Of a stretch of 64,000 nucleotides of DNA, positions 19,530 through 40,670 are shown piece by piece. The notes below the pieces were generated by a model. It saw only the letters and a list, made by a program, of their open reading frames with translations, searched no databases and was not told where the DNA came from. Source of the stretch: an uncultured Candidatus Cloacimonadota bacterium. GTDB lineage: Bacteria > Cloacimonadota > Cloacimonadia > Cloacimonadales > TCS61. The stretch spans positions 92,845 to 156,844 of the forward strand of contig CAZFPK010000001.1 in NCBI GenBank assembly GCA_964521025.1. Direction: 5' to 3'. The translations under genes and the position numbers were made by a program. The first letter of the stretch is position 1; each line of letters opens with the position of its first letter.

Positions 19530-19891
19530 TTTATCTCACTCGAATCCTCTTTTTGAAGCGCAATAACCGCGTTAATGCATAACACCGAAGTCGTTTTCAT
19601 ATCTAAAATAACACGGTTATTTTACTCCATATCGAATTTGTGAAGTCTTTGATACTTACCAAATTTCAATTCATCTTAAAAAATTCAAATCCAGCAGTTG
19701 CCTGATTGGTAAGTTTTTCTCAATCAAGATGATTGAGTTACTTTCTCAACAGGATTGTTTGAGTTACATTTACCCTGAAAATCCTGTTATCCTATCTAAT
19801 CTCTAATGCTTTTTTAAAGTTATTCTCAATTCGACGCTTCAGACTTCACTTCGTTTCGCCTTGACAGGTCGCTTTGAAGTCGAGTCTAACT

Positions 19892-21223
19892 TTAGCCAGG
19901 ACTCACGGAAAGATTTGTTTTCAATCCAGCATCCTCACCTTTTCCGGAGACAGTCAAACCCTCGAACTTAATCCAAGGATAGAGATGATAGCCGGAATTC
20001 ACTCTTTCGGATGAGATTTGTTTGATATTCTTCAGCATCTCGACCAGATTTCCGGAAACCATTGTTTCGCTGATGGGATATTTTATCTCGCCGTTTTCGA
20101 TGTAATAACTGTTCTTGGCAACTCCGCTGAAATCACCGTTATCGCTGGGATTTCCTCCGCTGAAACGACAAAGCAGGATTCCCTGTCTGGTTGATTTGAT
20201 GATTTCTTCATAAGAAACATCTCCCGGTTCGATAATGTAGTTTCCTCCCATATTAACTGCCTTAGGAAGTCCGGTTTTTTTGGAGCCGTAAAGTCCCAGG
20301 AGGAATGTTTTCAGAATTCCTTTATCGATGACGGTGCTGTCTTTTGCTTCAAAGCCGTCCGGAGTAACGAAATAATTAGCAGCCAGTTCTTTTGATAAAG
20401 GTTTTGAGTGCAAAGTGAACCTGCTATCTGCGATCACTTTTTTCAATTTGTCTTTATAAACCGAAGTTTTCGTAATGAGCGGGTAATCATAAAGATAGCG
20501 AGTAATGCTGCCGATAATATCATCCATACAATCGGGAGTAATGATCACATTTCCGACGAATTTTTCCGGGATCGGATGCGTTTCGGTTTGTTCGGAAGAC
20601 TGCTGCATTAACCTGTCGAAAGATGCTAATTCTTTGAATGGTTTATCCAGATCTTTGGTTAGAGCAAAAGAATAATTGAAGGAAGAAGTTTTCTTTCCCT
20701 TCTTGGTCGTGAACATCGCCACAAAAGTATAAAGACTGTTTCGGGTAGTGAATTCTACTCCATTGGAATTAATGAATTTACTATTCCTTTTGGTGAAATC
20801 AAAGATCAATTCTTCCAGTATTGTGTCCGGATAAGTTTCTTTTGCCCAAGCCATAAATTCGGTCATGCGGGAATACATTTTGTCCAGATCCGGTTTTTCC
20901 GGCCCGGAAGAAAATTCCTTTGCCGGCTGTTTTTCGGAAATATCGTTTGCCGGATCCGGCTGGGAAGACTCCGCCAGTTCGATAACCTGCTTCACTGCTG
21001 CATCTACAGGTCGTTTATCGAGTTTGTTGATGGTAGTCGAGCCTTTCTTATCCTGCAGAATTCCGGTCAAAGAGAGATTATTATTGAAAGTAGTGCGGAA
21101 AAGACTGATTTCTCCAGCTACCACATTCAGTTCGTGTTTTTCACTTTTTGTGAGAGAACACTGGACTTTTTCCGCTCCTGATTTGAACAGAGATTCTTGA
21201 GCATATTTGAGTATGTTTTCCAT
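19892..21223 (-). CDS. pmbA: TldE/PmbA family protein
   Basis: Follows tldD; NGDFSG..IENGEIKYPISETMVSGN. Confidence 0.85.
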   Translation of the reverse strand: MENILKYAQESLFKSGAEKVQCSLTKSEKHELNVVAGEISLFRTTFNNNLSLTGILQDKKGSTTINKLDKRPVDAAVKQVIELAESSQPDPANDISEKQPAKEFSSGPEKPDLDKMYSRMTEFMAWAKETYPDTILEELIFDFTKRNSKFINSNGVEFTTRNSLYTFVAMFTTKKGKKTSSFNYSFALTKDLDKPFKELASFDRLMQQSSEQTETHPIPEKFVGNVIITPDCMDDIIGSITRYLYDYPLITKTSVYKDKLKKVIADSRFTLHSKPLSKELAANYFVTPDGFEAKDSTVIDKGILKTFLLGLYGSKKTGLPKAVNMGGNYIIEPGDVSYEEIIKSTRQGILLCRFSGGNPSDNGDFSGVAKNSYYIENGEIKYPISETMVSGNLVEMLKNIKQISSERVNSGYHLYPWIKFEGLTVSGKGEDAGLKTNLSVSPG

Positions 21224-22602
21224 TATTTACCTCCGATATTGACTTTACATTTGATGGCTGGTCCGCCCATTCCAACCGGGATCATCTGCTTTTTCCCGCA
21301 CATTCCGCCGCAACTCCAAACCATATCATCCGAAATCATAGTTACAGTTTTCAAAACATCGAAGGCAATTCCGCTGATAGTCGTATCTTTGATCGCTTTC
21401 CCGAGTTTTCCGTTTTTAATTTCATATCCCTGCACAATTCCGAACATAAATTCGCTGGTAGAATCTGCCTGTCCGTTGGAAGATTTCATCAGATAATAGC
21501 CGTTGTCGATGGAAGCGATCATATCTTCTAGTTTGTCTTTCCCGGGAATAAAAGCAGTATTTCTCATCCTGACGAGCGGTTCGTCAGAAAAAGTATAAGC
21601 ACGCGCATTTCCGGTCAATTCCATCTGAAAATGATTCGCATATTCTTTGGTGTTCAGATATTTTTTAAGAATTCCATTTTCGATGATAACCGCATCTTCC
21701 GCTTTGGTTCCTTCATCATCGATAAAGAGCGGAACCGGACACAATTTTCCATCATAATGATTGGCAAAATCTACGAGATTTACCATCTCTGACGCAACTT
21801 TCTGATTGAGAAAATCTCCGGCAACAGAACCACCTTTGACGATATCCGCTTCGGTTGTATGACCGATCGCTTCGTGTGCTAGAATTCCCGCCAGATCAGC
21901 ATCGAGAATACAATTGTGAATTCCTGCTTCCGCATAAACTCCTTCCGATTTTTTGATGAGATGTTCATACTGCTCACCGAGTTGGGGGAAAAGTTTCTTT
22001 GGATCGTCAAAATTGTCCTCGAACTGTCCTAAACCGCCGTAAACTTTATAAAGTTCATAAGGTTGTCCGTCTTTCTCGACTGTCATCGTTACATAACTGA
22101 TCGTTCTGGGGATCATTGAAAAAGAAGTCGAACCGTCGGAAGTGAGCAGCAATTTCTCCATATCGAGACACGCCATAACAACCGTTCTGGAAGTCAGTTT
22201 CGTGAATTTCTCTTTGATGTAATCATCGATTTTCTGCATGAATTCAATTATCTCTTTCTGCGATTTTTTCGGTTTAGTCGTAGTGAAATCATTTTCCGAA
22301 CTGCCTTTTCGGTTAGGAAGTTCCGGTTTTTTCCGGTCTTCTTTGGAACTGATAAATTTCGCATTTTTGGTTGCAGATGCAATCACCTGCTTGATAGTTT
22401 CCTTCTCAAGTTCCGGATTGGAAGCAAAACCCCAGAATCCGTCCTTGTAAACACGTGCAGAAACTCCACCAGTAGCGGTTCTGCTGTTACTCATAATGTC
22501 GCCGTTGACCATCGTGATTCGAATATCCCGATTTTCCTGAACGCGCAGTTCAGTGTATTCGGTGAAATACTTCGAATACTTGCTTAAGTCTTTTAGAATC
22601 AT
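21223..22602 (-). CDS. tldD: TldD metalloprotease
   Basis: HEAIGH, DDEG, GNAR, RMRNT, CGK. Confidence 0.92.
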   Translation of the reverse strand: MILKDLSKYSKYFTEYTELRVQENRDIRITMVNGDIMSNSRTATGGVSARVYKDGFWGFASNPELEKETIKQVIASATKNAKFISSKEDRKKPELPNRKGSSENDFTTTKPKKSQKEIIEFMQKIDDYIKEKFTKLTSRTVVMACLDMEKLLLTSDGSTSFSMIPRTISYVTMTVEKDGQPYELYKVYGGLGQFEDNFDDPKKLFPQLGEQYEHLIKKSEGVYAEAGIHNCILDADLAGILAHEAIGHTTEADIVKGGSVAGDFLNQKVASEMVNLVDFANHYDGKLCPVPLFIDDEGTKAEDAVIIENGILKKYLNTKEYANHFQMELTGNARAYTFSDEPLVRMRNTAFIPGKDKLEDMIASIDNGYYLMKSSNGQADSTSEFMFGIVQGYEIKNGKLGKAIKDTTISGIAFDVLKTVTMISDDMVWSCGGMCGKKQMIPVGMGGPAIKCKVNIGGK

Positions 22603-22943
22603 AGTTCTATCTCCTTTTATTTTTTATCCACGAATTACACTAATTTCACTAATTTAATTAACAACGAACAAAACGAACATTGAAAAACCTTGAAAAAGTT
22701 TATAAGAATTCACTTCCTGCTTAACTTTTTCAAATGTTTCCTCGCAAATTTGTGAAGTCTATAAAAGACTTACCGAATTTTATCATTTCTTTTAATTCTC
22801 TGATAAACTTCACAAGTTTTGAAAACTTGGTAAGTTTCATTTTCCAACCATTGAAAATGACTTAATCACCTTCGGTGATTTTAGAAAAAATTCCGCTGGT
22901 AGAGTCCGTTTTCAAGGTTTCTCGAAATTGAAATTTCGAGTTA
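22603..22943. repeat. Composite palindromic spacer (modules F-D-B-E-C)
   Basis: CACGAATT module; ACCTTGAAAAAGTT..AACTTTTTTCAA; TTTGTGAAGTCT..AAACTTCACAAG..CTTGGTAAGTTT; AACCATTGAAAA..TTTTCAAGGTT; CTCGAAAT..ATTTCGAGTTA. Confidence 0.85.
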
Positions 22944-24986
22944 TTTCTCAAACTCATCCAGCGGTTCATTCAATTCTTCCGTGCCGGGAACAACGAATCT
23001 ACCATCTCTGATTATATCGATTTTCTCTCCATCTTTGGTGATGGCAGAAATAAAATCCAAATCTTCATACGGAAGCGTGATATCTGTATGACAGTTCGTG
23101 TATGCCTGCTGGATATCGGTTTTCCGCAAAGCACTTTTTTCGTTCTCGCGAGCCGTTATCTCTTTGTTATCGATGGGATTATACACTTTAAAATCCTCTT
23201 CCCAGCTGAAACAGGTATCGCCAATTGCAAAATGTGGTCCCATTTTTTCAACAATCAAAACCGGCAGGATCGGGAGAATATCAAATTTTCTTGCCATAAC
23301 ATAAGCCTGCGTGTTCGTTCCGATAGCAAATTCTCCGAGTGGAAGAATTTTATGCGGGAAGAGCAGGTTTTCCTGGATGTATTTTTTGTTCTGTTCCGCA
23401 TCTTCAAAGTTTTTGCAGTCATATTCGGAAACATAACCTTCTTTGAAGGTCAGTTTCAGATCTGTGAATTTCAGTTGTTTGAGGAAAGTTTCTTTCAAAT
23501 GTAAAATTCCATTTGTTCCCTTTAATTGCGGGGAAGTAAAAACTTCTCCCACGGGGATATTCACATCTGCACCGCAATTCACGAAATTCGTGTGTTTGGA
23601 CGGATCTTCCAACTTCTGCATCTTCACTTTTATGTCCGTCAGATTCCCGCCTTTTCCTTTGATATGAACATAATCCGCCAGATCGAGAACATCGACAATC
23701 TTCTGCTGGATTTCTTCGTGATGAATTGTGTCGATCATATTCAAAGCAAGAGTATCCTCGAAAATCTTCTCGAAATTTTCTCCGATTTCCGGACTCGGGA
23801 AACCGATGATACAAAAACTGGTCTTGGAACGGGAAATGTATCGATCGAGGATTTTACTGCGTTCGATATTCATCTTCTGCATTAATTTCTGCTGCTGGGG
23901 AGAGAGTTTCAAACAAGCGTCTTTCTGTTTGGGATCGAATGGTTTTTCACCGAATTTATCGAAATAAAACGGACCTGCGAATTTCAATAATTCCTCCCGG
24001 CATTTTTCCGCAGCATTTTTGATCACATCTGTCTGCTTTTCCACGAATTCTTCATCCAGGAAAAGTGCTCCCGGAAAGCGATGATCGTAAGTGTATTGGC
24101 GATTGGGAGGAGTCGTATAAACAGTGTTAAGAAGTGCTTTCAATTTGTTATTCTCCAATTCCATGACCAGCGCGCGAGCCAGTTTTTCCTGCCCGATATT
24201 GTAATGAACATTTACAGTTTCCTTTTGGGAAATGTCTTTGCGAGCCAGTTCATAACCGCGGATGAATGCTTTCACCATGGCTGCTGCCAATTCCCGAATT
24301 TTCTCTTCAGGATAATGAAGGAAAAATTCGGCAGTTTTAATCTCATTTTCCGTAATGGTTTTCCCATATTGATACAAATATCGCAAATCGGAAAGGTCAG
24401 AATTCATTAAAAGAGATTGAAATCCAGGATATTCCAAACTATAAAATTCTAGAAAACGAAAAACCTGATCGTCGATAGTTGGATTTTTGTGGATTTTTGT
24501 GGAGATATCGATGTATGGTTTTTTATCTCGAATTCTCTCTTTCATAAGTTCATAAAATTCGAGGAAATTGGTGTTCCATTTTTCCATCATAAAACGCTGA
24601 TTTTTGATGGAAAGAGATAGGAAAATCCTGAATTGGAGATAGAAATTGGAGAAAATCACTCCGAGTTCTTTGCCGAAAACTTTTACCGCATACTCCGGAT
24701 TAGCAAAACTTCTCTCGTAATTTTGAGGAAGGATTTCAGAAAAATAATTCAGGTTGAATTCTTTTAATTCTCCCAGCGTTTTTTCCTGGTAATATTTGTT
24801 GGAAAATTCTCTTTCAAGTTCGCTCAATACAATGATTCTGTCGGCAATTGTGAAAGCGAATTCCATAAACTTATCTTCCGATTCTCTGGTTTCTTCCCTG
24901 ATTTTTCTGATTTTTTGAAGATTCTGTTGAAAACTCTCATCGATTTGTTTATTTCTCTTTTGGAGAAGTTCTTCGTAATTTACCAT
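22941..24986 (-). CDS. M29 (thermophilic metalloprotease) aminopeptidase with long N-terminal extension
   Basis: NIPVGEVFTSP, GEFAIGTN, EKMGPHFAIGD, HTDITLP. Confidence 0.85.
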   Translation of the reverse strand: MVNYEELLQKRNKQIDESFQQNLQKIRKIREETRESEDKFMEFAFTIADRIIVLSELEREFSNKYYQEKTLGELKEFNLNYFSEILPQNYERSFANPEYAVKVFGKELGVIFSNFYLQFRIFLSLSIKNQRFMMEKWNTNFLEFYELMKERIRDKKPYIDISTKIHKNPTIDDQVFRFLEFYSLEYPGFQSLLMNSDLSDLRYLYQYGKTITENEIKTAEFFLHYPEEKIRELAAAMVKAFIRGYELARKDISQKETVNVHYNIGQEKLARALVMELENNKLKALLNTVYTTPPNRQYTYDHRFPGALFLDEEFVEKQTDVIKNAAEKCREELLKFAGPFYFDKFGEKPFDPKQKDACLKLSPQQQKLMQKMNIERSKILDRYISRSKTSFCIIGFPSPEIGENFEKIFEDTLALNMIDTIHHEEIQQKIVDVLDLADYVHIKGKGGNLTDIKVKMQKLEDPSKHTNFVNCGADVNIPVGEVFTSPQLKGTNGILHLKETFLKQLKFTDLKLTFKEGYVSEYDCKNFEDAEQNKKYIQENLLFPHKILPLGEFAIGTNTQAYVMARKFDILPILPVLIVEKMGPHFAIGDTCFSWEEDFKVYNPIDNKEITARENEKSALRKTDIQQAYTNCHTDITLPYEDLDFISAITKDGEKIDIIRDGRFVVPGTEELNEPLDEFEK

Positions 24987-25280
24987 TTTTCCCCCTTGTT
25001 TATTTCAAAGATTCAACGATTACCCATCACCAATCTGCAAATTATGTACCAGATGCTGTGATGTTATAAACCGTTTTATATTCATCTTTTGTTACAATAT
25101 TTTCAATTTACTATTTATCAAAATGATAATTTCTTTTAAACGAGATTTATCAAATTTTCATCCTATTTACTTTGAAAAAGTTACTCTCAATCAATCTTTC
25201 TTATTAACTCTTTCAAGGTTAGATCTTACGAACTCTAAAAGAGTCAATTGAGAGAGAATTTGGAAGAGACTTTTTCAGAG

Positions 25281-25886
25281 TTACATAAAAACTCGCATCA
25301 TCATTTTGGTTGCTTTGCGCAAAAAGTCTTTGGAAACATCTTCCCTATTATATTTTGTGTGCATATTGATGTAGAGATTATTGAGGAAATAATTCACTGC
25401 AATTTTCGATTCGATTTCTGAGAAAATACTTCCATCCTCGATTCCCTTTTTCATAATTTCGGAAAACAATTTTAGTTTTTTCTTACTTGATTTTTCAAAT
25501 TCCTGCTCTCGTTTCTGGTTGGAATCACAAAGTTTGATACCTTTATCATGCACATATTTTAACAGTGAAAAGTAGATAGAATTTTGACTGAAAAAGTTGT
25601 TGTATGATTTCGCTGCTGCGAGAAGTTTATCGTATCCTTTTTCTTTGGATTCTGCGGCTTTTTTGATTAGTTCGAAACTGCGGTTCCAACCTCTCATATA
25701 AACTGCTAACAGGATTTCTTCTTTGCATGAAAAATATTTGTATAAAGTCGGTTTTGTATAGTCGGATTCGGAAGCGATATCCTCCATTTTTGTGCTTTCA
25801 AAACCGTTTTCTAAAAAGAGTTTTTCAGCGGCTTCTATGATCAGGTTTTCCCTGAATTCAATTTCTTTTTCCTTACGGGAAACCAT
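25281..25886 (-). CDS. TetR/AcrR family regulator
   Basis: AAEKLFLENGFESTKMEDIA..TKPTLYKYFSCKEE. Confidence 0.92.
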   Translation of the reverse strand: MVSRKEKEIEFRENLIIEAAEKLFLENGFESTKMEDIASESDYTKPTLYKYFSCKEEILLAVYMRGWNRSFELIKKAAESKEKGYDKLLAAAKSYNNFFSQNSIYFSLLKYVHDKGIKLCDSNQKREQEFEKSSKKKLKLFSEIMKKGIEDGSIFSEIESKIAVNYFLNNLYINMHTKYNREDVSKDFLRKATKMMMRVFM

Positions 25887-26028
25887 TAGTTACTCCTTAT
25901 TATTTTATTTAACTTTGGGTCAAATATTTTTTAATGAAGTAAATGTCAAGTTTTTTGTGTTTTTTATTTGACACTGATACTCTTGTTATCAACTTTGATT
26001 TTGATATATAAATATCAGGAGGTTACAG

Positions 26029-26409
26029 ATGGGATTAATCAAAACCAAGATTATTTTAAAGAATCCAAAAAAGGAAGAACTGGAAGAGATGGAAGTTGAT
26101 ACACTTGTTCATTCCGGTGCTTTACATTTGTATATTCCTGAAAAAATTGCTATTCAGTTGAATTTAGATGAACTTTATAAACGAGAAGTTGTTACGGCTG
26201 ACGGTAAAGAGCATTTGTGTTCTTATGTAGGACCTATCGAAGTAAAATTCGAGAATAGAGGATGTTTTACCGGTGCTTTAGTTTTGGGAGATGAAGTTTT
26301 GCTGGGAGTAGTTCCAATGGAAGACATGGATGTTCTAATTTCACCTGCCGAACAGAAACTTATTGTAAATCCGGAAAGTCCAAATATTGCTTCTTCCATT
26401 GTTAAATGA
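26029..26409 (+). CDS. Clan AA aspartic-protease-like protein; usual DTG/DSG motif appears as HSG
   Basis: LVHSGA, TADG, YVGP, LLGVVPMEDMD. Confidence 0.75.
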   Translation: MGLIKTKIILKNPKKEELEEMEVDTLVHSGALHLYIPEKIAIQLNLDELYKREVVTADGKEHLCSYVGPIEVKFENRGCFTGALVLGDEVLLGVVPMEDMDVLISPAEQKLIVNPESPNIASSIVK

Positions 26410-26547
26410 GATGAAGAGTGAACCTTGAATAAGTTTATAAGATAATTCATCTCGCTGAACTTTTTCTGTAGTTTCAACTTCTAACTGTTGAAAAGGATTA
26501 ATCTCCTATGGAGATTTTTACACGAATTCCACTGGCAGAATCCGTTC

Positions 26548-28146
26548 TCAAGGTTTTCCCAACTCCAGAGTTTCCGAGGATAGTTTTTCCTGCAGATAAC
26601 GGTCATGAGAAACGAAGATGATTGTTCCATTGAATTTTATGAGAGCATTTTCCAACGCTTCTCTGGCTGATATTTCCAGATGATTCGTCGGTTCATCGAG
26701 AAGCAGCACATTAGCATCGGAAACAATGATCTTTGCCAGAGCAGTTTTGCTTTTTTCTCCGATACTTAAACTTCTAATTTTCTGATATACTTTATCTTTC
26801 CGGATATTCAAGCATCCGAGAATTGTCCTCGCTTCAGAATGAATTTCGTTATTTCCTTGAATGACCTCCTCGATGATGGAATTATTCTCATTCAGATTCT
26901 CAAACTCCTGCGAATAATAACCGATTTTGGCTTGCGGATTCCAGGAAAAAGAACCATCAAAATCGGTAATTTCTCCAATCAGGATTTTCAAAAGAGTCGT
27001 TTTACCGCTACCGTTTACTCCATTTATTACTAATCTTGAATGATTGGGAACAGAAAAGAAGAGACTTTTGAAAACATTATTCGCATCAAACGATTTTCCC
27101 AAATTTTCAACTTTCAGGATAAACCTGCTTTTCAAATCAGAATCGTGAATTTGGATTTTCCTTTTTTTCTCGATGAAAGGTTTGCTCGATTCCTCTTTCT
27201 CGATTTCTTTTCGAATCCTTGTTTCGATGTTCTTTGCTCTTTTCATCGCACTTTTTGCCGGATTCGTGATTTTCTCATAGACCGGAGCATAACCTTCTTT
27301 TCCGGTTTGCGATTGATGGGAAAATGCCCAAGTTTTTCGCTGTGAAAGAGTTTTCTTCAATTGTTTTATCTTTTTCTGCTGCACTTCAAATCTATGCATT
27401 TTCCTGTTGAATTCAGTTGCTTTTTCATACTTGTAAAAGGAATAATTCCCGGAATAAGTTTGAATCGTTTTGTTCTCCAACTCCCAGATTTCTTTCACGC
27501 AGTAATCCAGAAATCTGCGGTCATGGCTGATAACGAGAAACGGAATGGAAATCTTCTGCAGATAGGATTCGAGCCAGTTCAGAGTTTTGATATCGAGATG
27601 ATTTGTCGGTTCATCCAGAAGTAGAATATCTGGTTCATTTAGCATAATTCGACAGAAAGCGATTTTGGTTTTCTCACCTCCACTTAAACTGGAAAGAGGA
27701 CGGGTCAACATTTCCTCTTCGAGTTCAAATTGAGAGAGAGTTTTTTCAAACCTGTATTCAAATTTATATCCGCGATTTTTCTCGAAGTCAGAGTAAATTT
27801 GAACAACTTCCTGTTCGGAAAAATCCTGCAGATTTTTCATCTTCCTTTTTAACTCAAAAAGTATTGGATTAACTTTCCAGAGAAAATCAGAAACAGAAAT
27901 ATTTTCCGAAAGGTCTATCTCCTGGGGAAGAAATCCAGAAACCAGGTCTTTCCTGAAATAAATATTCCCGGAAATTGGCTGAATTTCTTCTTTCAACATT
28001 TTAAGAATCGTAGTTTTCCCGCAGCCGTTATTCCCGATCAAACCGACACGACTGGAATTTACCATCTCGAAAGATACATCTTCCAGGATATTTTCGGATT
28101 GAGTTTCGTAACAGAAACTGATGTTATTTGTTTTGATGTATAGCAT
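26548..28146 (-). CDS. ABC-F ATPase, probable ribosomal protection type
   Basis: Two NBDs (GNNGCGKT, GVNGSGKT; LDEPTNHLD/E), no TM segments, extended interdomain linker ending AKSAMKRAK. Confidence 0.88.
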   Translation of the reverse strand: MLYIKTNNISFCYETQSENILEDVSFEMVNSSRVGLIGNNGCGKTTILKMLKEEIQPISGNIYFRKDLVSGFLPQEIDLSENISVSDFLWKVNPILFELKRKMKNLQDFSEQEVVQIYSDFEKNRGYKFEYRFEKTLSQFELEEEMLTRPLSSLSGGEKTKIAFCRIMLNEPDILLLDEPTNHLDIKTLNWLESYLQKISIPFLVISHDRRFLDYCVKEIWELENKTIQTYSGNYSFYKYEKATEFNRKMHRFEVQQKKIKQLKKTLSQRKTWAFSHQSQTGKEGYAPVYEKITNPAKSAMKRAKNIETRIRKEIEKEESSKPFIEKKRKIQIHDSDLKSRFILKVENLGKSFDANNVFKSLFFSVPNHSRLVINGVNGSGKTTLLKILIGEITDFDGSFSWNPQAKIGYYSQEFENLNENNSIIEEVIQGNNEIHSEARTILGCLNIRKDKVYQKIRSLSIGEKSKTALAKIIVSDANVLLLDEPTNHLEISAREALENALIKFNGTIIFVSHDRYLQEKLSSETLELGKP

Positions 28147-28554
28147 TTAATTTCTTTTTTTTGAACGACAAATTATTAGCAACGAACACACTGAAACTTG
28201 AGTTAAGTTCGGCTTTAGCCGAATCTTGACTTAAGTTGACAATGTTTTATTTGTGAAGTCTGCAAAGACTAACCAAAAGTTTTTATCCCTCTTTTACAAA
28301 CTTCACAAGTTTCAAAAACTTGGTAAGTTTCAGTTCTAACCGTTGAAAAGGACTTAATCTCCTGTGTAGATTAAAAAAAGAATTCCGCCAATAGAATATT
28401 TTTTAAGATTACTGCTTTCCAAACTCTGAAAGAGTCGAATGAAAGAAAATTTGAAAGAGACTTTTTCAGAGTTATTATCTCGAAATCGGAATTTCGAATT
28501 ACTGTATCACAATCATTCTTAATTGTATTTTTTTAAACAGGGATTTTTGAGTTA
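28147..28554. repeat. Composite palindromic spacer (F-A-B-E-H-C-G)
   Basis: A 28194-28240, B 28249-28330, E 28338-28410, H 28422-28474, C 28479-28502, G to 28554. Confidence 0.88.
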
Positions 28555-30356: not shown

Positions 30357-30804
30357 TACTTATCCTTTTTTTCAACGAACAAAACAACCGACTAACAATC
30401 AGAATCTTGATTTTGGAGTGCATCAATTATTTTGCTGCAAAACGACGGAGTCGTTTCCCCACAGAATGCAATTCTGTGCTTCTCTGACCTTGAAAAAGTT
30501 TTTTAGTATTCACAACAAAAATCTTTGAAGGAGATTACAGAACTTTTTCAACGGTTTCTATCTAAATTTGTGAAGTCTTTGAGACTTACCAAATTTTGAA
30601 GATATAAAACTTCACAAGTTTCGGAAACTTGGTAAGTTTTCTCGAAATCGGAATTTCGAGTTACATTCCAAACCTTGAAAAAGTTTATAAGTATTCTCTT
30701 CCTGCCATACTTTTTCAATGGTTTTCCCATATCATCGATTTCCAACCATTGAAAAGGACAAATGAAAGAATTCCTCCGGTAGAATCCGTCTTCAAGGTTT
30801 TTAA
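30357..30804. repeat. Composite palindromic spacer (F-D-B-C-D-E)
   Basis: D 30488-30557, B 30565-30640, C 30641-30664, D 30672-30725, E 30744-30800. Confidence 0.85.
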
Positions 30805-32859: not shown

Positions 32860-33170
32860 ATTTTATTTTTTCCTTTTTTTTGAAATCATGAATTAACACA
32901 AATTTTCACGAATCTAAAACTTAAGTTAAGCCGGCTTTAGCAGGTCTTGACTTAAGTTGACATATTCCGCTCCCATTAATTCTCAATATATTTGTGAAGT
33001 CTCCGAGAACTTAACAAATTTTGTTTCGATCCTTGCAAAACTTCACAAGTTTTTGGAAACTTGGTAAGTTTTCTCAAAATCGGAATTTCGAGTTACTGTA
33101 TCACAATCAATCCTGATTGTGTTTTTCTCAAACAAGATTGTTTGAGTTACATTTATCCTGTTCATCCTTT
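32860..33170. repeat. Composite palindromic spacer (F-A-B-C-G)
   Basis: A 32917-32961, B 32991-33071, C 33073-33096, G 33092-33150. Confidence 0.88.
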
Positions 33171-33464
33171 TTAATCATTCACCCAATATTCCCGGCAATC
33201 TTGAGTTCTTCTCATAAATCCATAATCGACGAGTAATCTTCTAATTATGAAGATATCATCATAAAAACCGGAGACAATTTCATTCACCTCTTTTTCTGAA
33301 TATTTCCTATTCGATTCGAAATTCTCGAAAATTTTCTGTAAAACTATCACCTTTTTCTTCTCTTTATTTGGAAGTGTTTTCAATCTTCCCGAATCTTTAT
33401 CGAAATATGATTTCAACACTTTCTCTTTTGTTTTTTCATCTATCTCATATTTGTCTTTGATCAT
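33171..33464 (-). CDS. DUF2087 domain protein
   Basis: GRLKTLPNKEKKK, YSEKEVNE, IRRLLVDYGFMRR..EYW. Confidence 0.85.
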   Translation of the reverse strand: MIKDKYEIDEKTKEKVLKSYFDKDSGRLKTLPNKEKKKVIVLQKIFENFESNRKYSEKEVNEIVSGFYDDIFIIRRLLVDYGFMRRTQDCREYWVND

Positions 33465-33663
33465 TTTGTTCTCCTTTTTTTGAAACCATTAATTAACACA
33501 AATTCTCACGAATAAAACTTGAGTTAAGTCGGCTTTAGCCGATCTTGACTTAAGTTGAAGATAATCATTACTTCGTCTATCCAACCATTGCGAAGGTCAA
33601 GAGAAGCAAGAAGTCCGAAAACCATTCGCAAGGTCTTTCTCGAAATCTGAATTTCGATTTACA

Positions 33664-35352
33664 TTATATCGCAGGTCCATAAAATGATTCCCATAATTTC
33701 TTTGAAACATTGTATGAATCTTTCTCCACCCCGAATTTGCTTACATATTTGCAGATATTTTCAACATCCCGCAAAAGCAGTTCAAAGGCGTTATGATTTA
33801 CATTCGGATCTACTGCTTGAGGAAAATCGATAATATACGGCTCTTCCTTGTGATAGAGAATATTAAAAGGTGAAAGATCACCGTGCACAATATGATTTTG
33901 GAGCATCACGGAAATATTGTTCACGATTTTTTTAAAGACATTTTCCGCTTCTTGCTTATTTAAACGAACATCTTTGAGCATCGGAGCAGAATAATCATCT
34001 TCTCCGATAAAACTCATCACAACAGCATCATCCGTGCAGGCAATCGGTTCCGGCACTTTCAATCCGATGTCAAATAATGTTCCCAAAGCATCAAATTCGT
34101 TGTTCACCCAAATAGAGCGTTCCACTTGTTTCACGATTGAAGAACCTTTCTTTTTACCTCGTTCCAAGCGTTTATCCCAAATCCTGCCTTGATGGTAAAT
34201 TCCATCCTGCTTAAAATTCCGGAATTTCTTTTCCCGATACAATTTTACTGCCATATATTCACAATTCATTTCATGATGCGCCTTACAGCAGACAACAACC
34301 GCTTCTTTACCTTTTTTTACCACTCGAATTAGTTCTGTGATTATTTTTTCATCAAAGAAATCCTCGCAGGATTCTCCGTAACGCATCAAATCTGTTTTGA
34401 AAACATTTTCCACAGGCTGCAATTCATAGAATATTTTTTCCAACAAAGATATTCTTTCTTTATCGATTTCCGGAACTTGTTCAGCGTTAAATTGCTGACC
34501 AATCTCACCCATAAAATCTACACAGCAAACTGCTGTATAAAAATCCAGAACCTGAAGTTGCAGATTGGACAGGTTATATTCATCTGAAATAAAATCGATA
34601 TAATCCGTATCACTATTTTGAGAAAGTAGAGCCATTTTCGTGAGACCTAAATGAAACAATTTATCACCGAAACAGAGTTCATCTACATCTACAATTCCAT
34701 TCAACTTTCCGTTTTGGATGATTACATTTTTGGTAGTGATATCATCGAGAAAAGGAACCGACTCGATCGATGAAAAATATTCATCAAAGCGCTCCATCCT
34801 GGTGAAAAGAAACTCCACCTGTTTCAAACTGCAAACTCCGATGTCAGCGATGCGATCTCTACTTCTTTTCAGCGAATTCCTGATCACATCTTTCCACGAT
34901 TTATTTTCCTTTAGAATTTTATCTTCATAAGAAGTTGCATAACCGTAACCTTCCGCTTTGGGAAGATCTGAAACTATTTTTTGAATTTTCACGATTTCTT
35001 TCGATAGATTTTTCTTTTGCGTCCCGGTCAGTTCATCATAAACAAAATGCAGGTCTTTTCCTGCTAATCGTTCCATAATCACATACGGAAATTCGCATTC
35101 AAAATCGAAATGAAGAATTTCAGGAACAGGAGTTTTAAAATGCTTCATTTTTTTATTCCAATAAACTCCACCTTTTAATAAATTTATGGAGTTATCTCTT
35201 GCGAGACGAATTACAATTTCCTCACCGGTTTCCAATTTTACATCATAAACAAAATGACATAATCCTGCATTAAACCTGCTGATTTCAGAAACAGCAACTT
35301 GATAATGATTTTCTACAATATCTTTTGCGATTTGAATATTTGGATTTTTCAT
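33664..35352 (-). CDS. Aminoglycoside-phosphotransferase-like domain fused to RIO1-type kinase
   Basis: N-half DDITTKNV..GIVDVD; C-half KKGKEAVV, AVKLY, HGDLSPFNIL, IIDFPQAV; start placed at ATG 35352 after the RBS. Confidence 0.8.
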   Translation of the reverse strand: MKNPNIQIAKDIVENHYQVAVSEISRFNAGLCHFVYDVKLETGEEIVIRLARDNSINLLKGGVYWNKKMKHFKTPVPEILHFDFECEFPYVIMERLAGKDLHFVYDELTGTQKKNLSKEIVKIQKIVSDLPKAEGYGYATSYEDKILKENKSWKDVIRNSLKRSRDRIADIGVCSLKQVEFLFTRMERFDEYFSSIESVPFLDDITTKNVIIQNGKLNGIVDVDELCFGDKLFHLGLTKMALLSQNSDTDYIDFISDEYNLSNLQLQVLDFYTAVCCVDFMGEIGQQFNAEQVPEIDKERISLLEKIFYELQPVENVFKTDLMRYGESCEDFFDEKIITELIRVVKKGKEAVVVCCKAHHEMNCEYMAVKLYREKKFRNFKQDGIYHQGRIWDKRLERGKKKGSSIVKQVERSIWVNNEFDALGTLFDIGLKVPEPIACTDDAVVMSFIGEDDYSAPMLKDVRLNKQEAENVFKKIVNNISVMLQNHIVHGDLSPFNILYHKEEPYIIDFPQAVDPNVNHNAFELLLRDVENICKYVSKFGVEKDSYNVSKKLWESFYGPAI

Positions 35353-35576
35353 TGTTTTTTCCTTTTTTTTGAAACTACGAATTTTCACGAATCTAAAACT
35401 TGAGTTAAGTCGGCTTTAGCCGATCTTGACTTAAGTTGACATATTAGCACCTTGAAAAAGTTTCTTTCAATCCATCTTCCTATTTAACTCTTTCAAGGTT
35501 ACACATCTCCAAACTCTGAAATAGTCAAATATAAGAGAATTTGGAAGAGACTTTTTCAGAGTAATATTCAAGGTTT
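35353..35576. repeat. Composite palindromic spacer (F-A-D-H); D-H part nearly colinear with 25171-25283
   Basis: A 35396-35440, D 35449-35500, H 35512-35563. Confidence 0.85.
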
Positions 35577-37403
35577 CTATGCATTCAATATCTTCGCTTC
35601 CTGTTCTTCCATAAACTGGTTCGTGTAGAGTTTATGGTAATATCCTTTCTGGTTGAGAAGTTCGTGATGATTTCCCTGCTCGGTAATTTTTCCATCGCGG
35701 ATCACTAAAATCCTGTCTGACGAACGGATTGTGGAAAGACGGTGGGCGATGATAAAACTCGTACGATTCTCCAGAACTGTTTGGATAGCATCCTGGATTT
35801 TCTGTTCGGTTTCCGTATCCACAGACGAAGTTGCTTCATCCAGCACAAAGATTTTTGGATTCGCTAGAATCGCTCTGGCAAAGGAAATGAGTTGCTTTTC
35901 TCCGGTTGAGAGCAGACTTCCACCTTCACCGACTTCGCTGTCATATCCTTTCTCGGTTTTCTGGATAAAATCGTGTGCATTGACCAATCGAGCCGCATTT
36001 TCAACTTCCTCGTCATTTGCATCCAATCTGCCGTATTTGATGTTGTCCTTGATCGTACCGCTGAACAGATGTGGTGTCTGCAATACATAACCGAGATTGG
36101 AATGCAACCAGAGCAATGACCTTTCCCGATAATCGGTTCCGTCGATTTTGATAGAACCGGAATTCGGTTCATAAAATCGGCAGGCAAGATTTACGATTGT
36201 GCTTTTGCCGGAACCTGTTTCTCCAACGAGTGCTATTGTTTCTCCGGAATTTATTTCCAGGTTGAAATTCTCCAGCACATTTTCACCTTTTTTGTATTTG
36301 AAAGAAACATTCTCAAAGTGGATATTCCCTATTATTTTTGGCCAATTCTCTGTTTTCGAGTTAAGGATATCACCGAATTTTTCCGCAATTTCCGAACTGT
36401 CCTGAATCTCCGGTTTCTCATCGATCATCGAGAAAATCCTCTCTGCTGATGCTTGAGCATTTTGCAATTCCGCAAAGATGCGAGCCAGTTCCCGCAAAGG
36501 TTCAAAAAACTGAACTGTGTAAGATATGAAAGCGACAAGAGTTCCGTAAGTTATGGTTTGCAGGATAACGCCTTCTCCGCCTTTCCATAGTGCGAGTCCG
36601 GTTCCGATGCTGCCGAGAGTCAGAACTGCCGGCAGATACAAGGATGAGAAAATCGCTGCTTTTACGGATGAACGATACATTTTGCTCGTAAGTTGCTGGA
36701 ATTCTTTCAGATTCGCTTCTTCCCGAACTAATGTTTTGGTTGTCTTTGCTCCGGAGATTCCTTCATTGAACGACCCAGTAATGCGCGAATTCGTCTTCCG
36801 AACTTTCCGATAAGTTTTCAGTATTTTCTTCTGGAAATAAATGCTGATCACAACCAAAACCGGAACAACGATCAAAACCATCAACGCCAGTTTCCAATTC
36901 ATAATCAACATCACGATACTGATCCCGATCATCAGCGAAAATCCCCAAACCAGATCGACCAAACCCCAGGCGATGGTTTCTCCCAAACGCTGTCCGTCGG
37001 AAGTCATTCTTGCCATCAGCCAGCCGACCGGAGTTTTATCATAGTAATTGAAGGAAAGTTCCTGCAGATGCTGGAATCCTGCTTTCCTGATGTCGTAGGT
37101 CAATCCCATCTCAACTCTTCCTGCCAAAGCAATGAAGAAATAGATATTTATCGATTGAATGACGATCAATCCGAAATAGATCAGACCAAATCTCACAAGT
37201 CCGTCAGTACTTGCCGGAACAACAAAATGATCGATCGCATACTTACTCATCAGCGGGAAAATGACATCTACTCCAGCCAATCCCAGCATAAAAACTGCGA
37301 TGATGATCATTTGTTTTTTATAGGAAATTGTGAATTGAAAGAGTTTTTTCCACAACTTCCAATCTAAATTTTTATTATATTCCTGTTCTTCAAAAATAGA
37401 CAT
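35577..37403 (-). CDS. ABC exporter TMD-NBD half (consensus subunit of a heterodimer)
   Basis: TM helices; GETGSGKS, LSTGEKQ, LDEATS, AHRLST. Confidence 0.92.
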   Translation of the reverse strand: MSIFEEQEYNKNLDWKLWKKLFQFTISYKKQMIIIAVFMLGLAGVDVIFPLMSKYAIDHFVVPASTDGLVRFGLIYFGLIVIQSINIYFFIALAGRVEMGLTYDIRKAGFQHLQELSFNYYDKTPVGWLMARMTSDGQRLGETIAWGLVDLVWGFSLMIGISIVMLIMNWKLALMVLIVVPVLVVISIYFQKKILKTYRKVRKTNSRITGSFNEGISGAKTTKTLVREEANLKEFQQLTSKMYRSSVKAAIFSSLYLPAVLTLGSIGTGLALWKGGEGVILQTITYGTLVAFISYTVQFFEPLRELARIFAELQNAQASAERIFSMIDEKPEIQDSSEIAEKFGDILNSKTENWPKIIGNIHFENVSFKYKKGENVLENFNLEINSGETIALVGETGSGKSTIVNLACRFYEPNSGSIKIDGTDYRERSLLWLHSNLGYVLQTPHLFSGTIKDNIKYGRLDANDEEVENAARLVNAHDFIQKTEKGYDSEVGEGGSLLSTGEKQLISFARAILANPKIFVLDEATSSVDTETEQKIQDAIQTVLENRTSFIIAHRLSTIRSSDRILVIRDGKITEQGNHHELLNQKGYYHKLYTNQFMEEQEAKILNA

Positions 37404-37449
37404 AATTTACCTCTTAATTAGCAACGAACAAAACTAACAAAACGAACAA

Positions 37450-38145
37450 TTATTTACCACCGAGAACACCGAGATACACCGAGTTTAAATCTCCTCTTGA
37501 GAGGAGTCCGACTTTAGTCGGGAGGTGTGTTTCTTCATCATTGGATATTCCTTGTTGGATATTGAATATTTTTCTCTCCCAATCCCTTCTCAAGAGTGAA
37601 TAAATCAATTGATCATATCTAATTTTCCCATTCTCAAACCAATAATGTGCTCTCATTCTGCCATCGATTTGAAAACCAAAATGATCGAGTAGTTTTATCG
37701 AGCCGATATTTCCCTCATTTGTTTCAGCATAAATCTTATTCAAACTCATTTTCTTATAATTGAACATTGTATCCAAAAATAATGAAAGTAGTATCTTTCC
37801 ATAACCCTTTCTACGATTTTCTTTTGGGAAGTAATAACTGATCTCGATGCTATAATTTCGATGATTTCGATTTTGATAACTGGCGAAACCTAAATATTCT
37901 CCTGTTTTATTTTCTTTCAGAAAAGCGTAATTTATTTCTGAATACAATCGATTCTGCATTCTTTGATAGAATTTCTCAAAATGTTCTTCTTTGAAATCTT
38001 CTGTGTGCTTTTCCGGAACCCAGGCACAACTCATTTTATCTTTTTCATCTTCACTGATCTGCCATTTGTAATACTGCTTCAGAAGTTTTCTATCTTCTTT
38101 ATTTACAAATATTAGTGAATAAGATTTCTTTATGTCTTTTGTCAT
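37450..38145 (-). CDS. RimJ/RimL-type GNAT acetyltransferase with repeat-derived C-terminal tail
   Basis: RRKGYG, NIGSIKLL..FGFQIDGRMR; last ~40 aa run through repeat DNA. Confidence 0.82.
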   Translation of the reverse strand: MTKDIKKSYSLIFVNKEDRKLLKQYYKWQISEDEKDKMSCAWVPEKHTEDFKEEHFEKFYQRMQNRLYSEINYAFLKENKTGEYLGFASYQNRNHRNYSIEISYYFPKENRRKGYGKILLSLFLDTMFNYKKMSLNKIYAETNEGNIGSIKLLDHFGFQIDGRMRAHYWFENGKIRYDQLIYSLLRRDWERKIFNIQQGISNDEETHLPTKVGLLSRGDLNSVYLGVLGGK

Positions 38146-38219
38146 TTGTTCTCCATTTCTTTTCTTCCTTTTTCCTTCATTATTGGAAATTCCTTGTTGG
38201 ATATTGGATATTCATCTTT

Positions 38220-40085
38220 TCAAACAATCTTCTTCTCCTTCTTCAACACATCCGCTTCCATCTGCTTTGGCTCGATCTCGAATTCCAGTTCTTCCTCCAA
38301 CTGATTCTGCAGATTCCAGATACGCTGATAAAGTCCAGTTTGATTAACAAGTTCCTGATGATTTCCCTGCTGGATAAGTTTACCGTTTTCCAGAACCAGA
38401 ATCAAATCTGCTTCTGCGAGTGTATTGATGCGATGCGAGATGATGAAAGTCGTTGCCTTATTATTTCGCTTTTTGAGTTCTTTCCTGATCGCAGCATCTG
38501 TTTCCGTATCGACAGCACTCAATGAATCATCAAAAATCAGAATCGGACTGTCATTTACCAGAGTTCGAGCAATGGCGATTCGCTGCTTTTGTCCGCCGGA
38601 AAGAGTTACACCCCGCTCTCCAACTGCAGTTTCATATCCATTCTCAAAATCTTCGATAACTTCATGCACGGAGGCAATACGAGCGGCTTCAAAGACTTCC
38701 GCTTCGATCACATCGTGCTTTGCCAATCCGATATTTTCTTGAATCGTTTTGGAGAATAGGAAGGGCTCCTGAAGAACAATTCCCACTTTTTTCCTGATCA
38801 CTTTCTTATCGATATTTCTCAATTCAATTCCATCGATCTTGATCGAACCTTTTTGATTCTCATACAATCTCGGTAAAAGATGAACGAGAGACGATTTTCC
38901 AGATCCTGTCGGACCGAGAACAGCAACTGTCTGTCCTTTTTTGATATGAAAAGAAACATCATCCAGAACCGGTTTTCCTTCATCGTATTCGAAAGATACA
39001 TTTTGGAATTCGATCTCGCCTTCGATGGTTGGAGTCGGATCGCTGTCATTTCCAAATTCTTCGATCGGTGCATCGAGTATTTCCTGAATCCTGCCAATCG
39101 AAACAAGCGCTTTTCCCATATCGGTCAGAACTCGTCCCATTTGACGAATCGGCCAGAGCAACATTCCTACATAAGAAGTGAAAGCGAGTAAAGTTCCCAA
39201 CGAGATGATTCCTTTAGCAGCCCAGAAAGTTCCGATAACCAGAACTCCACCGATCTGGATCAAACAGAAAAAATCGGAAACCGACCAATACCAGGCGAGA
39301 AGCCGGATGAGATTGTAAGTAAGGTTGCGATACTCTACATTTCGCTCATCGAATTTCCCGATTTCATAAGACTGTCTGGCAAATGCTCGCACCACGCGCA
39401 CTCCGGTTAGATTTTCCTGTAGAACCGTTGATAATCTTCCTTCCGACTCATCCGAAAGTTTGAATGCTTTCTTTACTTTGATGAAGAAAACCACCGTGAA
39501 ACAGAAAATGAGAGGAATGAGCGACAACGAAACCAGCGTCATTTTCACATTCATCGGCAACATAAAGGAAAGTGCAAAAGCTATCATAAAGAGTGCTCTT
39601 CCAACCTCCACAAACTGCATTGCCAGAAATCTGCGAATCGTTTCCACATCGGAAGTACAGCGCTGGATCAAATCTCCGGTTTTCGCTTTCTGATGATAAT
39701 CATACGGAAGTTTCTGGAGATGATCGTAAACTTTCTCCCTGATCTTCCTGGCAATAGATTCCGCAGAAACAGCCGACCACTTTCCTTTCCAATACAGGAA
39801 AACTCCTCTGATCAATGTTAATCCAATGAGGAGTAAACTGCAGATCCAGAGGTTTTTTGCCAGTAGACTCTGATTTCCAAAAAAATTTAGCAAACCTTCG
39901 ATATACAGCTGCAACCAACCGAAAACAGCCATCTCTTTCCCACCGATGATCGAATCAACAGTGATCCTTAAAATCATTGGCCAAATGAAGTTAATGAAAG
40001 TAGCAAAACCAATGGAAAGGATGGACAGCACATAAAGCGTTCTGTTTCCTTTCATAAAATTCCATAATATTTTTATTTTATCCAT
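38220..40085 (-). CDS. ABC exporter TMD-NBD half (degenerate-site subunit of a heterodimer)
   Basis: GPTGSGKS, LSGGQKQR, Walker B FDDSLSAVD with Asp in place of the catalytic Glu. Confidence 0.92.
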   Translation of the reverse strand: MDKIKILWNFMKGNRTLYVLSILSIGFATFINFIWPMILRITVDSIIGGKEMAVFGWLQLYIEGLLNFFGNQSLLAKNLWICSLLLIGLTLIRGVFLYWKGKWSAVSAESIARKIREKVYDHLQKLPYDYHQKAKTGDLIQRCTSDVETIRRFLAMQFVEVGRALFMIAFALSFMLPMNVKMTLVSLSLIPLIFCFTVVFFIKVKKAFKLSDESEGRLSTVLQENLTGVRVVRAFARQSYEIGKFDERNVEYRNLTYNLIRLLAWYWSVSDFFCLIQIGGVLVIGTFWAAKGIISLGTLLAFTSYVGMLLWPIRQMGRVLTDMGKALVSIGRIQEILDAPIEEFGNDSDPTPTIEGEIEFQNVSFEYDEGKPVLDDVSFHIKKGQTVAVLGPTGSGKSSLVHLLPRLYENQKGSIKIDGIELRNIDKKVIRKKVGIVLQEPFLFSKTIQENIGLAKHDVIEAEVFEAARIASVHEVIEDFENGYETAVGERGVTLSGGQKQRIAIARTLVNDSPILIFDDSLSAVDTETDAAIRKELKKRNNKATTFIISHRINTLAEADLILVLENGKLIQQGNHQELVNQTGLYQRIWNLQNQLEEELEFEIEPKQMEADVLKKEKKIV

Positions 40086-40301
40086 TATTAATTTCCTTTA
40101 ACCGCGAATGAACACAAATTTTCGCGAATTCACCTTGAAAAAGTTTATAAGTCTTTTCTTCTTGCTGAACTTTTTCAACGGTTTTCATTTGAATTTGTGA
40201 AGTCTCCAAAGACTTAACAAATTTTATAAAGCTATTAGTCTAAAAAACTTCACATCCGTCAGTTGCCGGATTGTTAGTTTTCTCAAAATCGGAATTTCGA
40301 G

Positions 40302-40445
40302 TTACTTTCGTTTCAATTCCTCTTTCAAGAATTTCCGTACAGTCTTTCTTCCCTTCTGCTTAAACCAGCGTTTCGATTTTGTATGAGCACCATCCGGATG
40401 CGCCGGTCTTTTCCGGTTATATAATTTTTGAATTCCTGTTTTCAT
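40302..40445 (-). CDS. 47-aa highly basic small protein, not in ORF track
   Basis: MKTGIQKLYNRKRPAHPDGAHTKSKRWFKQKGRKTVRKFLKEELKRK; bracketed by the same spacer modules as neighbouring genes. Confidence 0.6.
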   Translation of the reverse strand: MKTGIQKLYNRKRPAHPDGAHTKSKRWFKQKGRKTVRKFLKEELKRK

Positions 40446-40608
40446 AATTTATTTCCCACAATTTAGCTCCGAACAAAACCAACAAAACGAACAATCTAAA
40501 ACTTGAGTTAAGTCGGCTTTGTTCGAATCTTGACTTAAGTTGAACTCTTTACCCTCGAAATCGGAATTTCGAGTTACATTCCAGTCCCATCATATGATTT
40601 TCCAAAAT

Positions 40609-40648
40609 AAAAAAAGACTCGTGAGAGCCAGAGCCCACTCGAGTCTTT
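40609..40648 (-). terminator. Attenuator terminator T2
   Basis: Minus strand AAAGACTCGAGTGGGCTCTGGCTCTCACGAGTCTTTTTTT. Confidence 0.8.
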
Positions 40649-40670
40649 GAAAAAATTTTGCTTTAGATAC

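Follow-up and report, generated by a model that had tools for sequence, protein, structure and literature searches.

In Escherichia coli, repetitive extragenic palindromes (REPs) are short, high-copy, imperfect palindromes of several related types per genome, which keep a mismatch in the stem, often lie just after genes and gather in mosaic clusters of set internal order (bacterial interspersed mosaic elements, BIMEs), and the gene for their Y1/HUH transposase TnpArep, a REP-associated tyrosine transposase (RAYT), is itself bracketed by repeats, as outlined in PMC3333891, PMC2817692 and the structure entry PDB 4ER8. This last arrangement, the REPtron, is known from E. coli (PMC3333891) and from other bacteria (PMC2817692). 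According to the E. coli account, binding and cleavage by TnpArep need both the stem mismatch and the single-stranded state (PMC3333891), and a 5′ GTAG or CGTC tag marks most catalogued REPs in the overview PMC3733652. Here we describe a system that shares most REP/BIME and REPtron properties, a set of short palindromic modules (A to H) in the spacers of a gene run within a 64,000-nt stretch from an uncultured Candidatus Cloacimonadota bacterium (contig CAZFPK010000001.1 of assembly GCA_964521025.1, positions 92,845 to 156,844), the whole of which is called the window below. The original prediction had proposed, as the first of its options, that this run is an integron-like cassette array, its spacers descending from one composite unit copied with each gene. 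Since the modules are dispersed over the genome and RAYT genes are flanked by them, the spacers are very probably BIME-like mosaics of several REP-type families, that is, of short imperfect palindromes multiplying within one genome, and not an integron. The evidence for this reading is the dispersal, the flanking of RAYT genes, the conservation of stem mismatches on one strand and the inheritance of spacers in place across genera.

Unlike E. coli REPs, the modules lack the 5′ GTAG tag, are AT-rich and in many cases span 45-90 nt with a long conserved ‘loop’; their families take different positions between the stop codon and the next start, and their host belongs to the Cloacimonadota. By analogy with E. 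coli, the elements would work like REPs, yet they fall outside the GTAG and CGTC superfamilies. With the Pseudomonas REPINs (REP doublets forming hairpins), as portrayed in PMC3116915 and PMC3337134, they share inverted arms that give a hairpin, vertical inheritance, long persistence, a population tied to a cognate RAYT and inverted doublets, although the copies in the window are single and co-oriented, not doublets. The insertion sequences IS200/IS605 (IS608 and ISDra2), as presented in PMC6006769, have a related Y1 HUH enzyme and sub-terminal imperfect hairpins recognised on one strand; unlike these, the modules do not carry a transposase of their own, and no conserved target tetranucleotide is visible 5′ of module E. 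Among the papers listed by a literature search, none seems from its title and abstract to describe REPs or RAYTs in Cloacimonadota, and the main text of the HUH survey PMC6006769 does not contain ‘Cloacimon’, although its supplementary tables may list such genomes. As far as this search went, REP/RAYT is a known kind of element that is new to Cloacimonadota.

Dispersal of the modules across the genome

The source assembly (coded G000) comprises 3.55 Mb in 111 contigs with 36.6% GC, and the window is G000:C1:92845-156844. Iterative genome searches with window-seeded profiles, a procedure that makes module counts favour the 21-kb region of the gene run (19630-40580) and so weighs against our reading, identified 278 non-overlapping module loci in G000 (108 of B, 76 of A, 33 of E, 29 of H, 23 of D and 9 of C), about 34 of which lie inside the region. 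Most loci are single or paired between ordinary genes; 22 of the 278 are inside crude open reading frame (ORF) calls and the rest are extragenic. Out of 111 contigs, the number occupied by a family ranges from 3 for C to 50 for B and is 12 to 50 for the major families; C alone is local, having seven of its nine copies in the region. Module A was present in 22 of 61 sampled genomes of the family, representing 6 of 22 genera, and a reversed-pattern control gave zero matches.

An unbiased all-against-all intergenic comparison assigned 78,661 nt (2.2% of the genome) to short intergenic repeats with at least five other copies. By this measure the region holds 1,585 repeat bases and the best 21-kb scan window over it 1,462, against a genome mean of approximately 466 (about 3.4-fold), and it is the second-densest 21-kb stretch, the densest being C6:28-49 kb with 1,654 repeat bases. 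The region is among the most heavily colonised stretches and forms the upper end of a continuum, not a separate island. The original prediction was to fall if modules proved equally dense and randomly ordered genome-wide with gene order invariant among relatives; modules are indeed common genome-wide, yet their order is non-random and gene content varies in a sister genus, as detailed below.

RAYT genes flanked by modules

Two RAYT genes of G000 are bracketed by module copies. Eight D/H copies surround the gene at C29:2609-3148, the first downstream copy starting at the stop codon of the gene, and this D/H bracketing is repeated in the relatives G038 (contig C55) and G147 (contig C213). The RAYT gene at C18:7206-7733 has two B copies on either side. 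A third pairing was observed in a relative, where a RAYT gene at G147:C14, related to one on contig C15 of G000, carries A copies on both sides; the flanks of the C15 gene itself contain, by eye, A-like repeats with the same two G.T positions as A. At least three REP-RAYT pairings are thus present (two in G000, one in a relative), with ten RAYT-family matches in G000, unlike the single tnpArep gene of E. coli reported in PMC3333891.

Against NF047646, the NCBIfam equivalog model of RAYTs (cut-off 80), the scores are 83.7 bits for the C29 protein, 83.8 bits for the C31 protein and 59.1 bits for the C15 protein. The C29 protein also matches E. coli TnpArep (PDB 4ER8; E 2e-5), and a PF01797 (Y1 transposase) match at 39.5 bits supports Y1 HUH identity. 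HUH and Y motifs are seen in the C29, C15 and C18 translations; the C18 gene is called a RAYT from these motifs and tblastn only (32% identity to C29, E 3e-24). G000 contains seven PF01797 and ten NF047646 matches, and RAYT matches occur in 51 of 61 genomes of the family, reaching 18 per genome in relatives, unlike the REPIN-tied RAYTs, which are single-copy as summarised in 10.1101/2022.05.22.493013.

Further Y1/RAYT-like genes of G000 are located at C31:29700-31400, C31:22900-25000, C28:1-1300, C8:66900-68800, C15:51100-52900 and C10:88206-88583, and most of these additional genes are flanked by a distinct palindromic family of their own, outside modules A-H. The window itself contains a truncated RAYT-like ORF of 124 aa (53789-54163, +; PF01797, E 4.8e-5) without repeats in its flanks, which is probably a decayed copy.

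Hairpin structure of the modules

Hairpin analysis of module A covered 71 pattern matches, approximately 5-6 of which are reverse-strand re-hits. The G.T and T.G outer pairs are both retained in 61 of the 71 matches and a third outer pair alternates between G-C (40) and A-T (25), and the inner segment, which occurs as 66 distinct sequences, pairs with itself over 4 bp or more in 46 of 71 matches, compared with a mean of 13.8 and a maximum of 25 in 200 shuffles. Fold energies of A and H differ between strands, and strand assignment rests on the same asymmetry; for A the values are -16.7 and -8.2 kcal/mol, the better-folding strand being antisense to the genes in the window. Modules E and B fold equally on both strands. 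Module B consists of four 15-nt AAACTT-NNN-AAGTTT blocks that give two local hairpins, each with a 2x2 mismatch, and covariation for a pairing of its blocks (b1:b3 and b2:b4) that resembles a pseudoknot or an alternative fold is mixed among 25 copies, with about four double versus five single changes counted by eye.

The AACTT/AAGTT theme is shared by A, B and D. The first letters of H, C and G are GTAAC or TAAAC, and those of E are AAACC. The D profile matches H copies and the H profile matches D copies, on the opposite strand each way, which implies that D and H are inverted relatives within one superfamily and that an H-D pair is an inverted doublet of that superfamily. Genome-wide, H and D alternate and doublets are found in the arrangements A+ A- (nine loci), H- H+ and B- B+, whereas the A, B, C and E copies of the window are single and co-oriented.

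Order and position of modules between genes

Pattern and profile searches recovered modules A, B, C, D, E and H where the original prediction had placed them, and the F and G motifs were seen by eye in the printed spacers. The region contains five copies of A, six of B, seven of C, eight of D (including the extra copy at 30673), five of E and three of H; the C pattern has seven + strand loci, against 0.04 chance matches expected. The copies are as follows.

28194-28237, +, module A (REP-like nested hairpin; outer arms with two conserved G.T pairs, inner hairpin variable), 47.0 bits
32917-32958, +, module A, 48.0 bits
33515-33556, +, module A, 52.0 bits
35396-35437, +, module A, 52.0 bits
40499-40541, +, module A, 38.3 bits
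19636-19716, +, module B, degenerate, without the third block, 23.3 bits
22748-22837, +, module B (four 15-nt blocks giving two imperfect hairpins), 49.2 bits
28249-28330, +, module B, 53.2 bits
30566-30639, +, module B, 60.0 bits
32990-33071, +, module B, 50.4 bits
40193-40267, +, module B, second half variant, 26.1 bits
22919-22943, +, module C (8-bp hairpin followed by TTAY), its TTA being the stop codon of the M29 peptidase gene; pattern and profile
28478-28502, +, module C; pattern and profile
30639-30664, +, module C; pattern and profile
33071-33096, +, module C; pattern and profile
33637-33662, +, module C; pattern and profile
40280-40305, +, module C, its TTA being the stop codon of a 47-codon ORF; pattern and profile
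40554-40577, +, module C; pattern and profile
22688-22733, +, module D (about 50 nt, 14-nt arms, loop kept between copies), 38.3 bits
25172-25218, +, module D, also matched by the H profile on the opposite strand; pattern and profile
26423-26466, +, module D, 27.0 bits
29375-29409, +, D-like, partial, 18.7 bits
30488-30553, +, module D with a long loop; pattern only, under the profile threshold
30673-30720, +, module D, the sole out-of-order element, 30.5 bits
35450-35498, +, module D, 44.5 bits
40133-40180, +, module D, 36.9 bits
22846-22920, +, module E (about 75 nt, outer stem and inner hairpin), 42.7 bits
26483-26556, +, module E, right arm giving the TGA stop of the ABC-F gene; pattern and profile
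28338-28404, +, module E, right arm degenerate, 19.6 bits
29495-29567, +, module E, right arm giving the TGA stop of the methyltransferase gene; pattern and profile
30744-30800, +, module E, 4 nt from the stop of the 684-aa gene; pattern and profile
25231-25281, +, module H, abutting the TetR gene stop codon (distance -1); pattern and profile
28422-28472, +, module H, 46.2 bits
35512-35562, +, module H, 40.6 bits

The order claimed for the + strand, A<D<B<{E,H,C}, is kept in 10 of 11 multi-module spacers, the last spacer being split by the 47-codon ORF; the sole exception is the spacer 30357-30804 with its extra D at 30673, as the original prediction had itself said. That all copies share one orientation is true of each family but not at the superfamily level, D and H being inverted relatives. 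Because the genes of the run are on the minus strand, the order in the sense of transcription is stop codon, C/E/H/G, B, D, A, F, ribosome-binding site, next gene, so that C, E and H abut the stop codon of the upstream gene and F adjoins the ribosome-binding site of the downstream gene, where it had been predicted. The order in the region was read from the same data that it describes, and the sole independent check comes from outside the region, where E before B, D or A was observed 11 times versus 2. With loose F patterns, which are noisy (110 and 42 matches, both strands), F was seen after A in 6 of 76 cases and after D in 2 of 23.

The families differ in their distance from gene ends. Located within 10 nt of the upstream stop or overlapping it were 20 of 30 E copies (4.7 expected under uniform spacer placement) and 8 of 20 H copies (1.0 expected), but none of 46 A copies (3.2 expected) and none of 17 D copies (0.9 expected). 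The next start is within 70 nt of 21 of 66 A copies; the corresponding counts are 5 of 29 E copies and 1 of 26 H copies. Six genes end at the TGA within the AAACCTTGA of E, and these genes presumably also take the two codons before the stop from the repeat; similarly, the TAA in the GTAAC or TAAAC starts of H, C and G is often a stop codon. Genome-wide, the ratio of antisense to sense copies relative to co-directional flanking genes is 25:2 for E, 15:3 for D, 19:8 for H, 54:22 for B and 33:25 for A. Since each family has its own position relative to gene ends, the fixed order is not a sign of a single ancestral composite unit. The other options of the original prediction, an ordered positional preference or an RNA-level role, hold as a pattern, with E and H near upstream stops, A and D never so and an orientation bias genome-wide, a pattern that may stem from insertion preference, strand-specific transposition or mRNA selection.

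Gene run and comparison with relatives

The minus strand between 17925 and 40085 carries 14 ORFs, all in the same direction. In order of transcription they encode ABC exporter 2, GNAT acetyltransferase 2, ABC exporter 1, an APH/RIO-kinase protein, a DUF2087 protein, a 684-aa protein without known family, a methyltransferase, GNAT acetyltransferase 1, an ABC-F ATPase, a TetR regulator, an M29-peptidase-domain protein, TldD-like and PmbA-like peptidases and a CBM9-domain protein. The genes and ORFs located in the region are listed below.

19892-22602, -, PmbA-like and TldD-like metallopeptidase gene pair (19892-21223, 21223-22602)
22941-24986, -, 681-aa protein with an M29 aminopeptidase domain at the C-terminus
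25281-25886, -, TetR-family regulator
26029-26409, +, clan AA aspartic protease of 126 aa, the sole + strand gene of the run (TIGR03698, 70.2 bits, cut-off 57.35)
26548-28146, -, ABC-F type ATPase with two ABC_tran domains
28552-29286, -, GNAT acetyltransferase 1
29559-30356, -, SAM-dependent methyltransferase
30805-32859, -, 684-aa protein without a Pfam or NCBIfam family
33171-33464, -, DUF2087 protein
33664-35388, -, protein with APH-like and RIO-kinase domains
35577-37403, -, ABC exporter 1, membrane and ATPase domains fused
37450-38145, -, GNAT acetyltransferase 2, the 3′ end of its ORF crossing another repeat copy at 37533-37570
38220-40085, -, ABC exporter 2
40302-40445, -, very basic 47-codon ORF dividing the last spacer, without a Pfam family

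In G115, a genome of the same genus, the three assembled junctions (TldD-M29, M29-TetR and RIO-ABC exporter 1) match the window at 75-82% identity, a figure that covers the spacers too. The sister genus retains the flanks (ABC exporters 2 and 1, TldD-PmbA), and the gene sets between them differ in G038, G105, G081 and G147: GNAT1 immediately precedes TldD and the 684-aa gene immediately follows ABC exporter 1 in G147, while G038, G105 and G081 have other ORFs between ABC exporter 1 and TldD. Comparison of relatives, proposed by the original prediction as a way of detecting gene gain and loss, therefore revealed that gene content between modules does vary in the sister genus. Upstream of TldD, the E-B-D spacer is orthologous among G000, G147 and G105, with 74% mean column identity including the loops, although the upstream gene is different in each. 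This implies that the mosaics are old and vertically inherited and that they travel with the downstream gene; the identity of the spacer is not above that of the neighbouring genes (about 77%).

The public sequencing runs listed for the stretch include none of RNA. Four public DNA runs of one study contain the stretch, and their contigs reproduce the sequence and break at modules. Loose contig ends are often at repeat edges, as dispersed repeats would yield, and are evidence neither for nor against cassette excision.

Origin of the spacers and alternative explanations

We propose that each major family has, or had, its own REPtron, in which a RAYT (HUH/Y1) gene would be flanked by copies of the family. 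Judging from the E. coli enzyme, the RAYT would bind the imperfect hairpin on single-stranded DNA, on one strand only, and would cut and rejoin it, spreading copies into tolerant spacers. The polar order might then have two components. Strand-specific insertion into single-stranded DNA, in a genome where 1,315 of 1,511 genes (87%) follow the local GC skew, would leave the elements co-oriented with genes, and the strand- and replication-linked orientation of IS200/IS605 (PMC6006769) offers a plausible cause of this polarity. In addition, each family would have a niche of its own at gene ends, with E, H and C overlapping the upstream stop or next to it, carrying an in-frame TGA or TAA, and A and D distal, nearer the next gene. 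The region itself would be a heavily colonised run of co-directional, accessory-looking genes, with a content that differs from genus to genus.

Several further observations count against this interpretation. The printed 5′ flanks contain no GTAG or CGTC tetranucleotide. Among the RAYT genes of G000 itself none flanked by A was found, nor was any RAYT found flanked by C (nine copies, seven of them in the region), and E matches the flanks of the C31 RAYT weakly and partially (E 9e-5 to 3e-3). The 30 best-scoring RAYT loci of relatives without any module belong to other RAYT subfamilies and are uninformative on A, B and E. Mobility was unobserved in the four metagenome runs, which gave no supported structural variant, all joints having a side of 21-32 nt. 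Module A is non-polar genome-wide, so its uniform orientation in the region (5/5) is unexplained, and the effects of replication and gene orientation are inseparable, with only six informative elements in genes that oppose the skew.

An alternative, which we regard as possible if doubtful, is that the elements are REP-derived and that selection at the mRNA level keeps their polar order, E, H and C acting as 3′-end hairpins (stabilisers, partial terminators or translation-coupled stop-codon brakes) and A, D and F being part of the 5′ leader, or of the promoter, of the gene that follows. Such selection would fit the biased orientation of modules relative to transcription, the extreme stop-codon adjacency, with the TGA of E ending six genes, the proximity of A to next starts relative to E and H and the retention of the composite E-B-D spacer in place across genera. 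Liang, Rudd and Deutscher are said to have found in 2015 that REPs within about 15 nt of the stop codon lower translation. E. coli REPs are presented as terminators and stabilisers of 3′ untranslated regions in the preprint bioRxiv 10.64898/2026.03.23.713779. However, the well-folding strand of A is antisense to the window genes, E and B fold alike on both strands, and the E-B-D spacer, no better conserved than its neighbouring genes, does not reveal extra constraint. Moreover, sigma-70-like promoter matches in the region are at chance level (54 versus 52.7) and Rfam 15 at the gathering threshold gave 0 matches in the 64-kb window; terminator-like hairpins number 26 in the region versus 14.1 expected, and several of these are the modules themselves. 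It seems unlikely to us that the REP families go further and support an integron-like economy without an integron integrase, by dividing the intergenic space into fixed niches (E, H and C stop-donating at the 3′ side, B central, D and A promoter-proximal) in which direct repeats of the same direction bracket every gene of the run and serve as recombination joints, so that genes are lost, gained or shuffled by homologous or RAYT-mediated exchange.

The integron model itself is not borne out, since the modules occupy 278 loci and are found in other genera too, three families flank RAYT genes and a heuristic scan found no attC in the region. In its present form it would describe a cluster of attC sites lacking a neighbouring integrase (CALIN), in which each gene is a cassette, one module is the attC and the integron integrase of the genome recombines them, and we give it next to no credence. 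The statement that no integrase was seen holds for contig C1 of the window, which has none of the 14 tyrosine-recombinase matches, but not for the genome: a true integron integrase is encoded at C68:202-1161 (TIGR02249, 439 bits, cut-off 265), about 200 nt from the contig end, its array being unassembled, and 5 of 53 other genomes in the family encode homologues, which mostly lie close to a contig end as well. Like attC arrays and CALINs, the locus has a co-oriented run of accessory-looking genes, an imperfect palindrome of variable centre after each ORF, stop codons sometimes within the repeat, an integrase in the genome and, in the sister genus, different genes between retained flanks; in gene sense, A and E start with AAC and end with GTT, E having one unpaired base per arm. 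In contrast to such arrays, the modules are genome-wide, mostly single or paired between ordinary genes, and are tied to HUH transposases, the spacers carry two to five unlike modules instead of one, and no module type is common to all spacers. A heuristic hairpin scan for RYYYAAC...GTTRRRY, a weak test that is not the attC model of IntegronFinder, returned 31 scattered matches and none in the region, and a profile search found modules absent beside the integrase of G000 and beside its homologues in four relatives (best E 0.049). The E-B-D spacer moves with the downstream TldD gene, whereas an attC, a site of 57-141 nt with bulged bases, would belong to the upstream ORF.

The proteins bound by E. 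coli BIMEs include IHF and gyrase. It is also conceivable, but very unlikely, that a dimeric DNA-binding protein (nucleoid-associated or a global regulator) recognises the 15-bp AAACTT-NNN-AAGTTT blocks and related arms as double-stranded sites, and that these are not transposase substrates. This would account for the four near-perfect 15-bp palindromes of B and for the theme that it shares with A and D, and PMC2817692 mentions that E. coli BIMEs bind several proteins. However, the conserved mismatches and G.T pairs, together with compensatory changes, indicate folding as a single strand, and the flanking of RAYT genes is unexpected of operator sites.

If the spacers are REP mosaics, as we favour, ordinary REP/RAYT biology explains the integron-looking pattern, and annotation of the region as a cassette array or as new RNAs should be avoided. 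REP-RAYT systems would then extend to Cloacimonadota, where RAYT matches are common and multi-copy within the family, and several co-resident REP families would stack in a reproducible order. The hugging of stop codons would show, in a clean and quantifiable way, how selfish repeats shape gene ends, and the partition between stop-hugging and distal niches, the number of RAYTs per genome and the variable, resistance-like gene content of the run are the features of note. The repeats also matter for gene calling and for the assembly of metagenome-assembled genomes (MAGs), as contigs of the source population break at modules. Integrons in Cloacimonadota may merit separate attention.

Further features of the region

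The 47-codon ORF at 40302-40445 (-) has its own F leader and ribosome-binding site, with its stop codon within a C module, and is possibly a real small protein. A tRNA scan found none. At approximately 40600-41100 both GC skew and gene orientation flip, from minus-strand genes with negative skew on the left to plus-strand genes with positive skew on the right, which could be a replication origin-like switch or merely a divergent gene boundary.

The closest relatives of TldD (21223-22602, -) are in a few Cloacimonadota MAGs (74-85% identity), followed by Bacillota (about 58-65%) ahead of many other Cloacimonadota (51-62%), a ranking of sequence identities that hints at lateral acquisition of the TldD/PmbA pair; one 85% match is labelled Armatimonadota, and its bin may be mislabelled.

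A further repeat family, GAATATCCAATATC..AAGGAATTTCCAATGATGAAG, occurs at 38170-38215 and 37533-37570, often with two short GC hairpins behind it. The genome contains about ten copies, one of which falls within the GNAT2 ORF at its 3′ end, and identity to copies in other genera reaches 98%. Loose ends and summed contig depth accumulate at these window positions.

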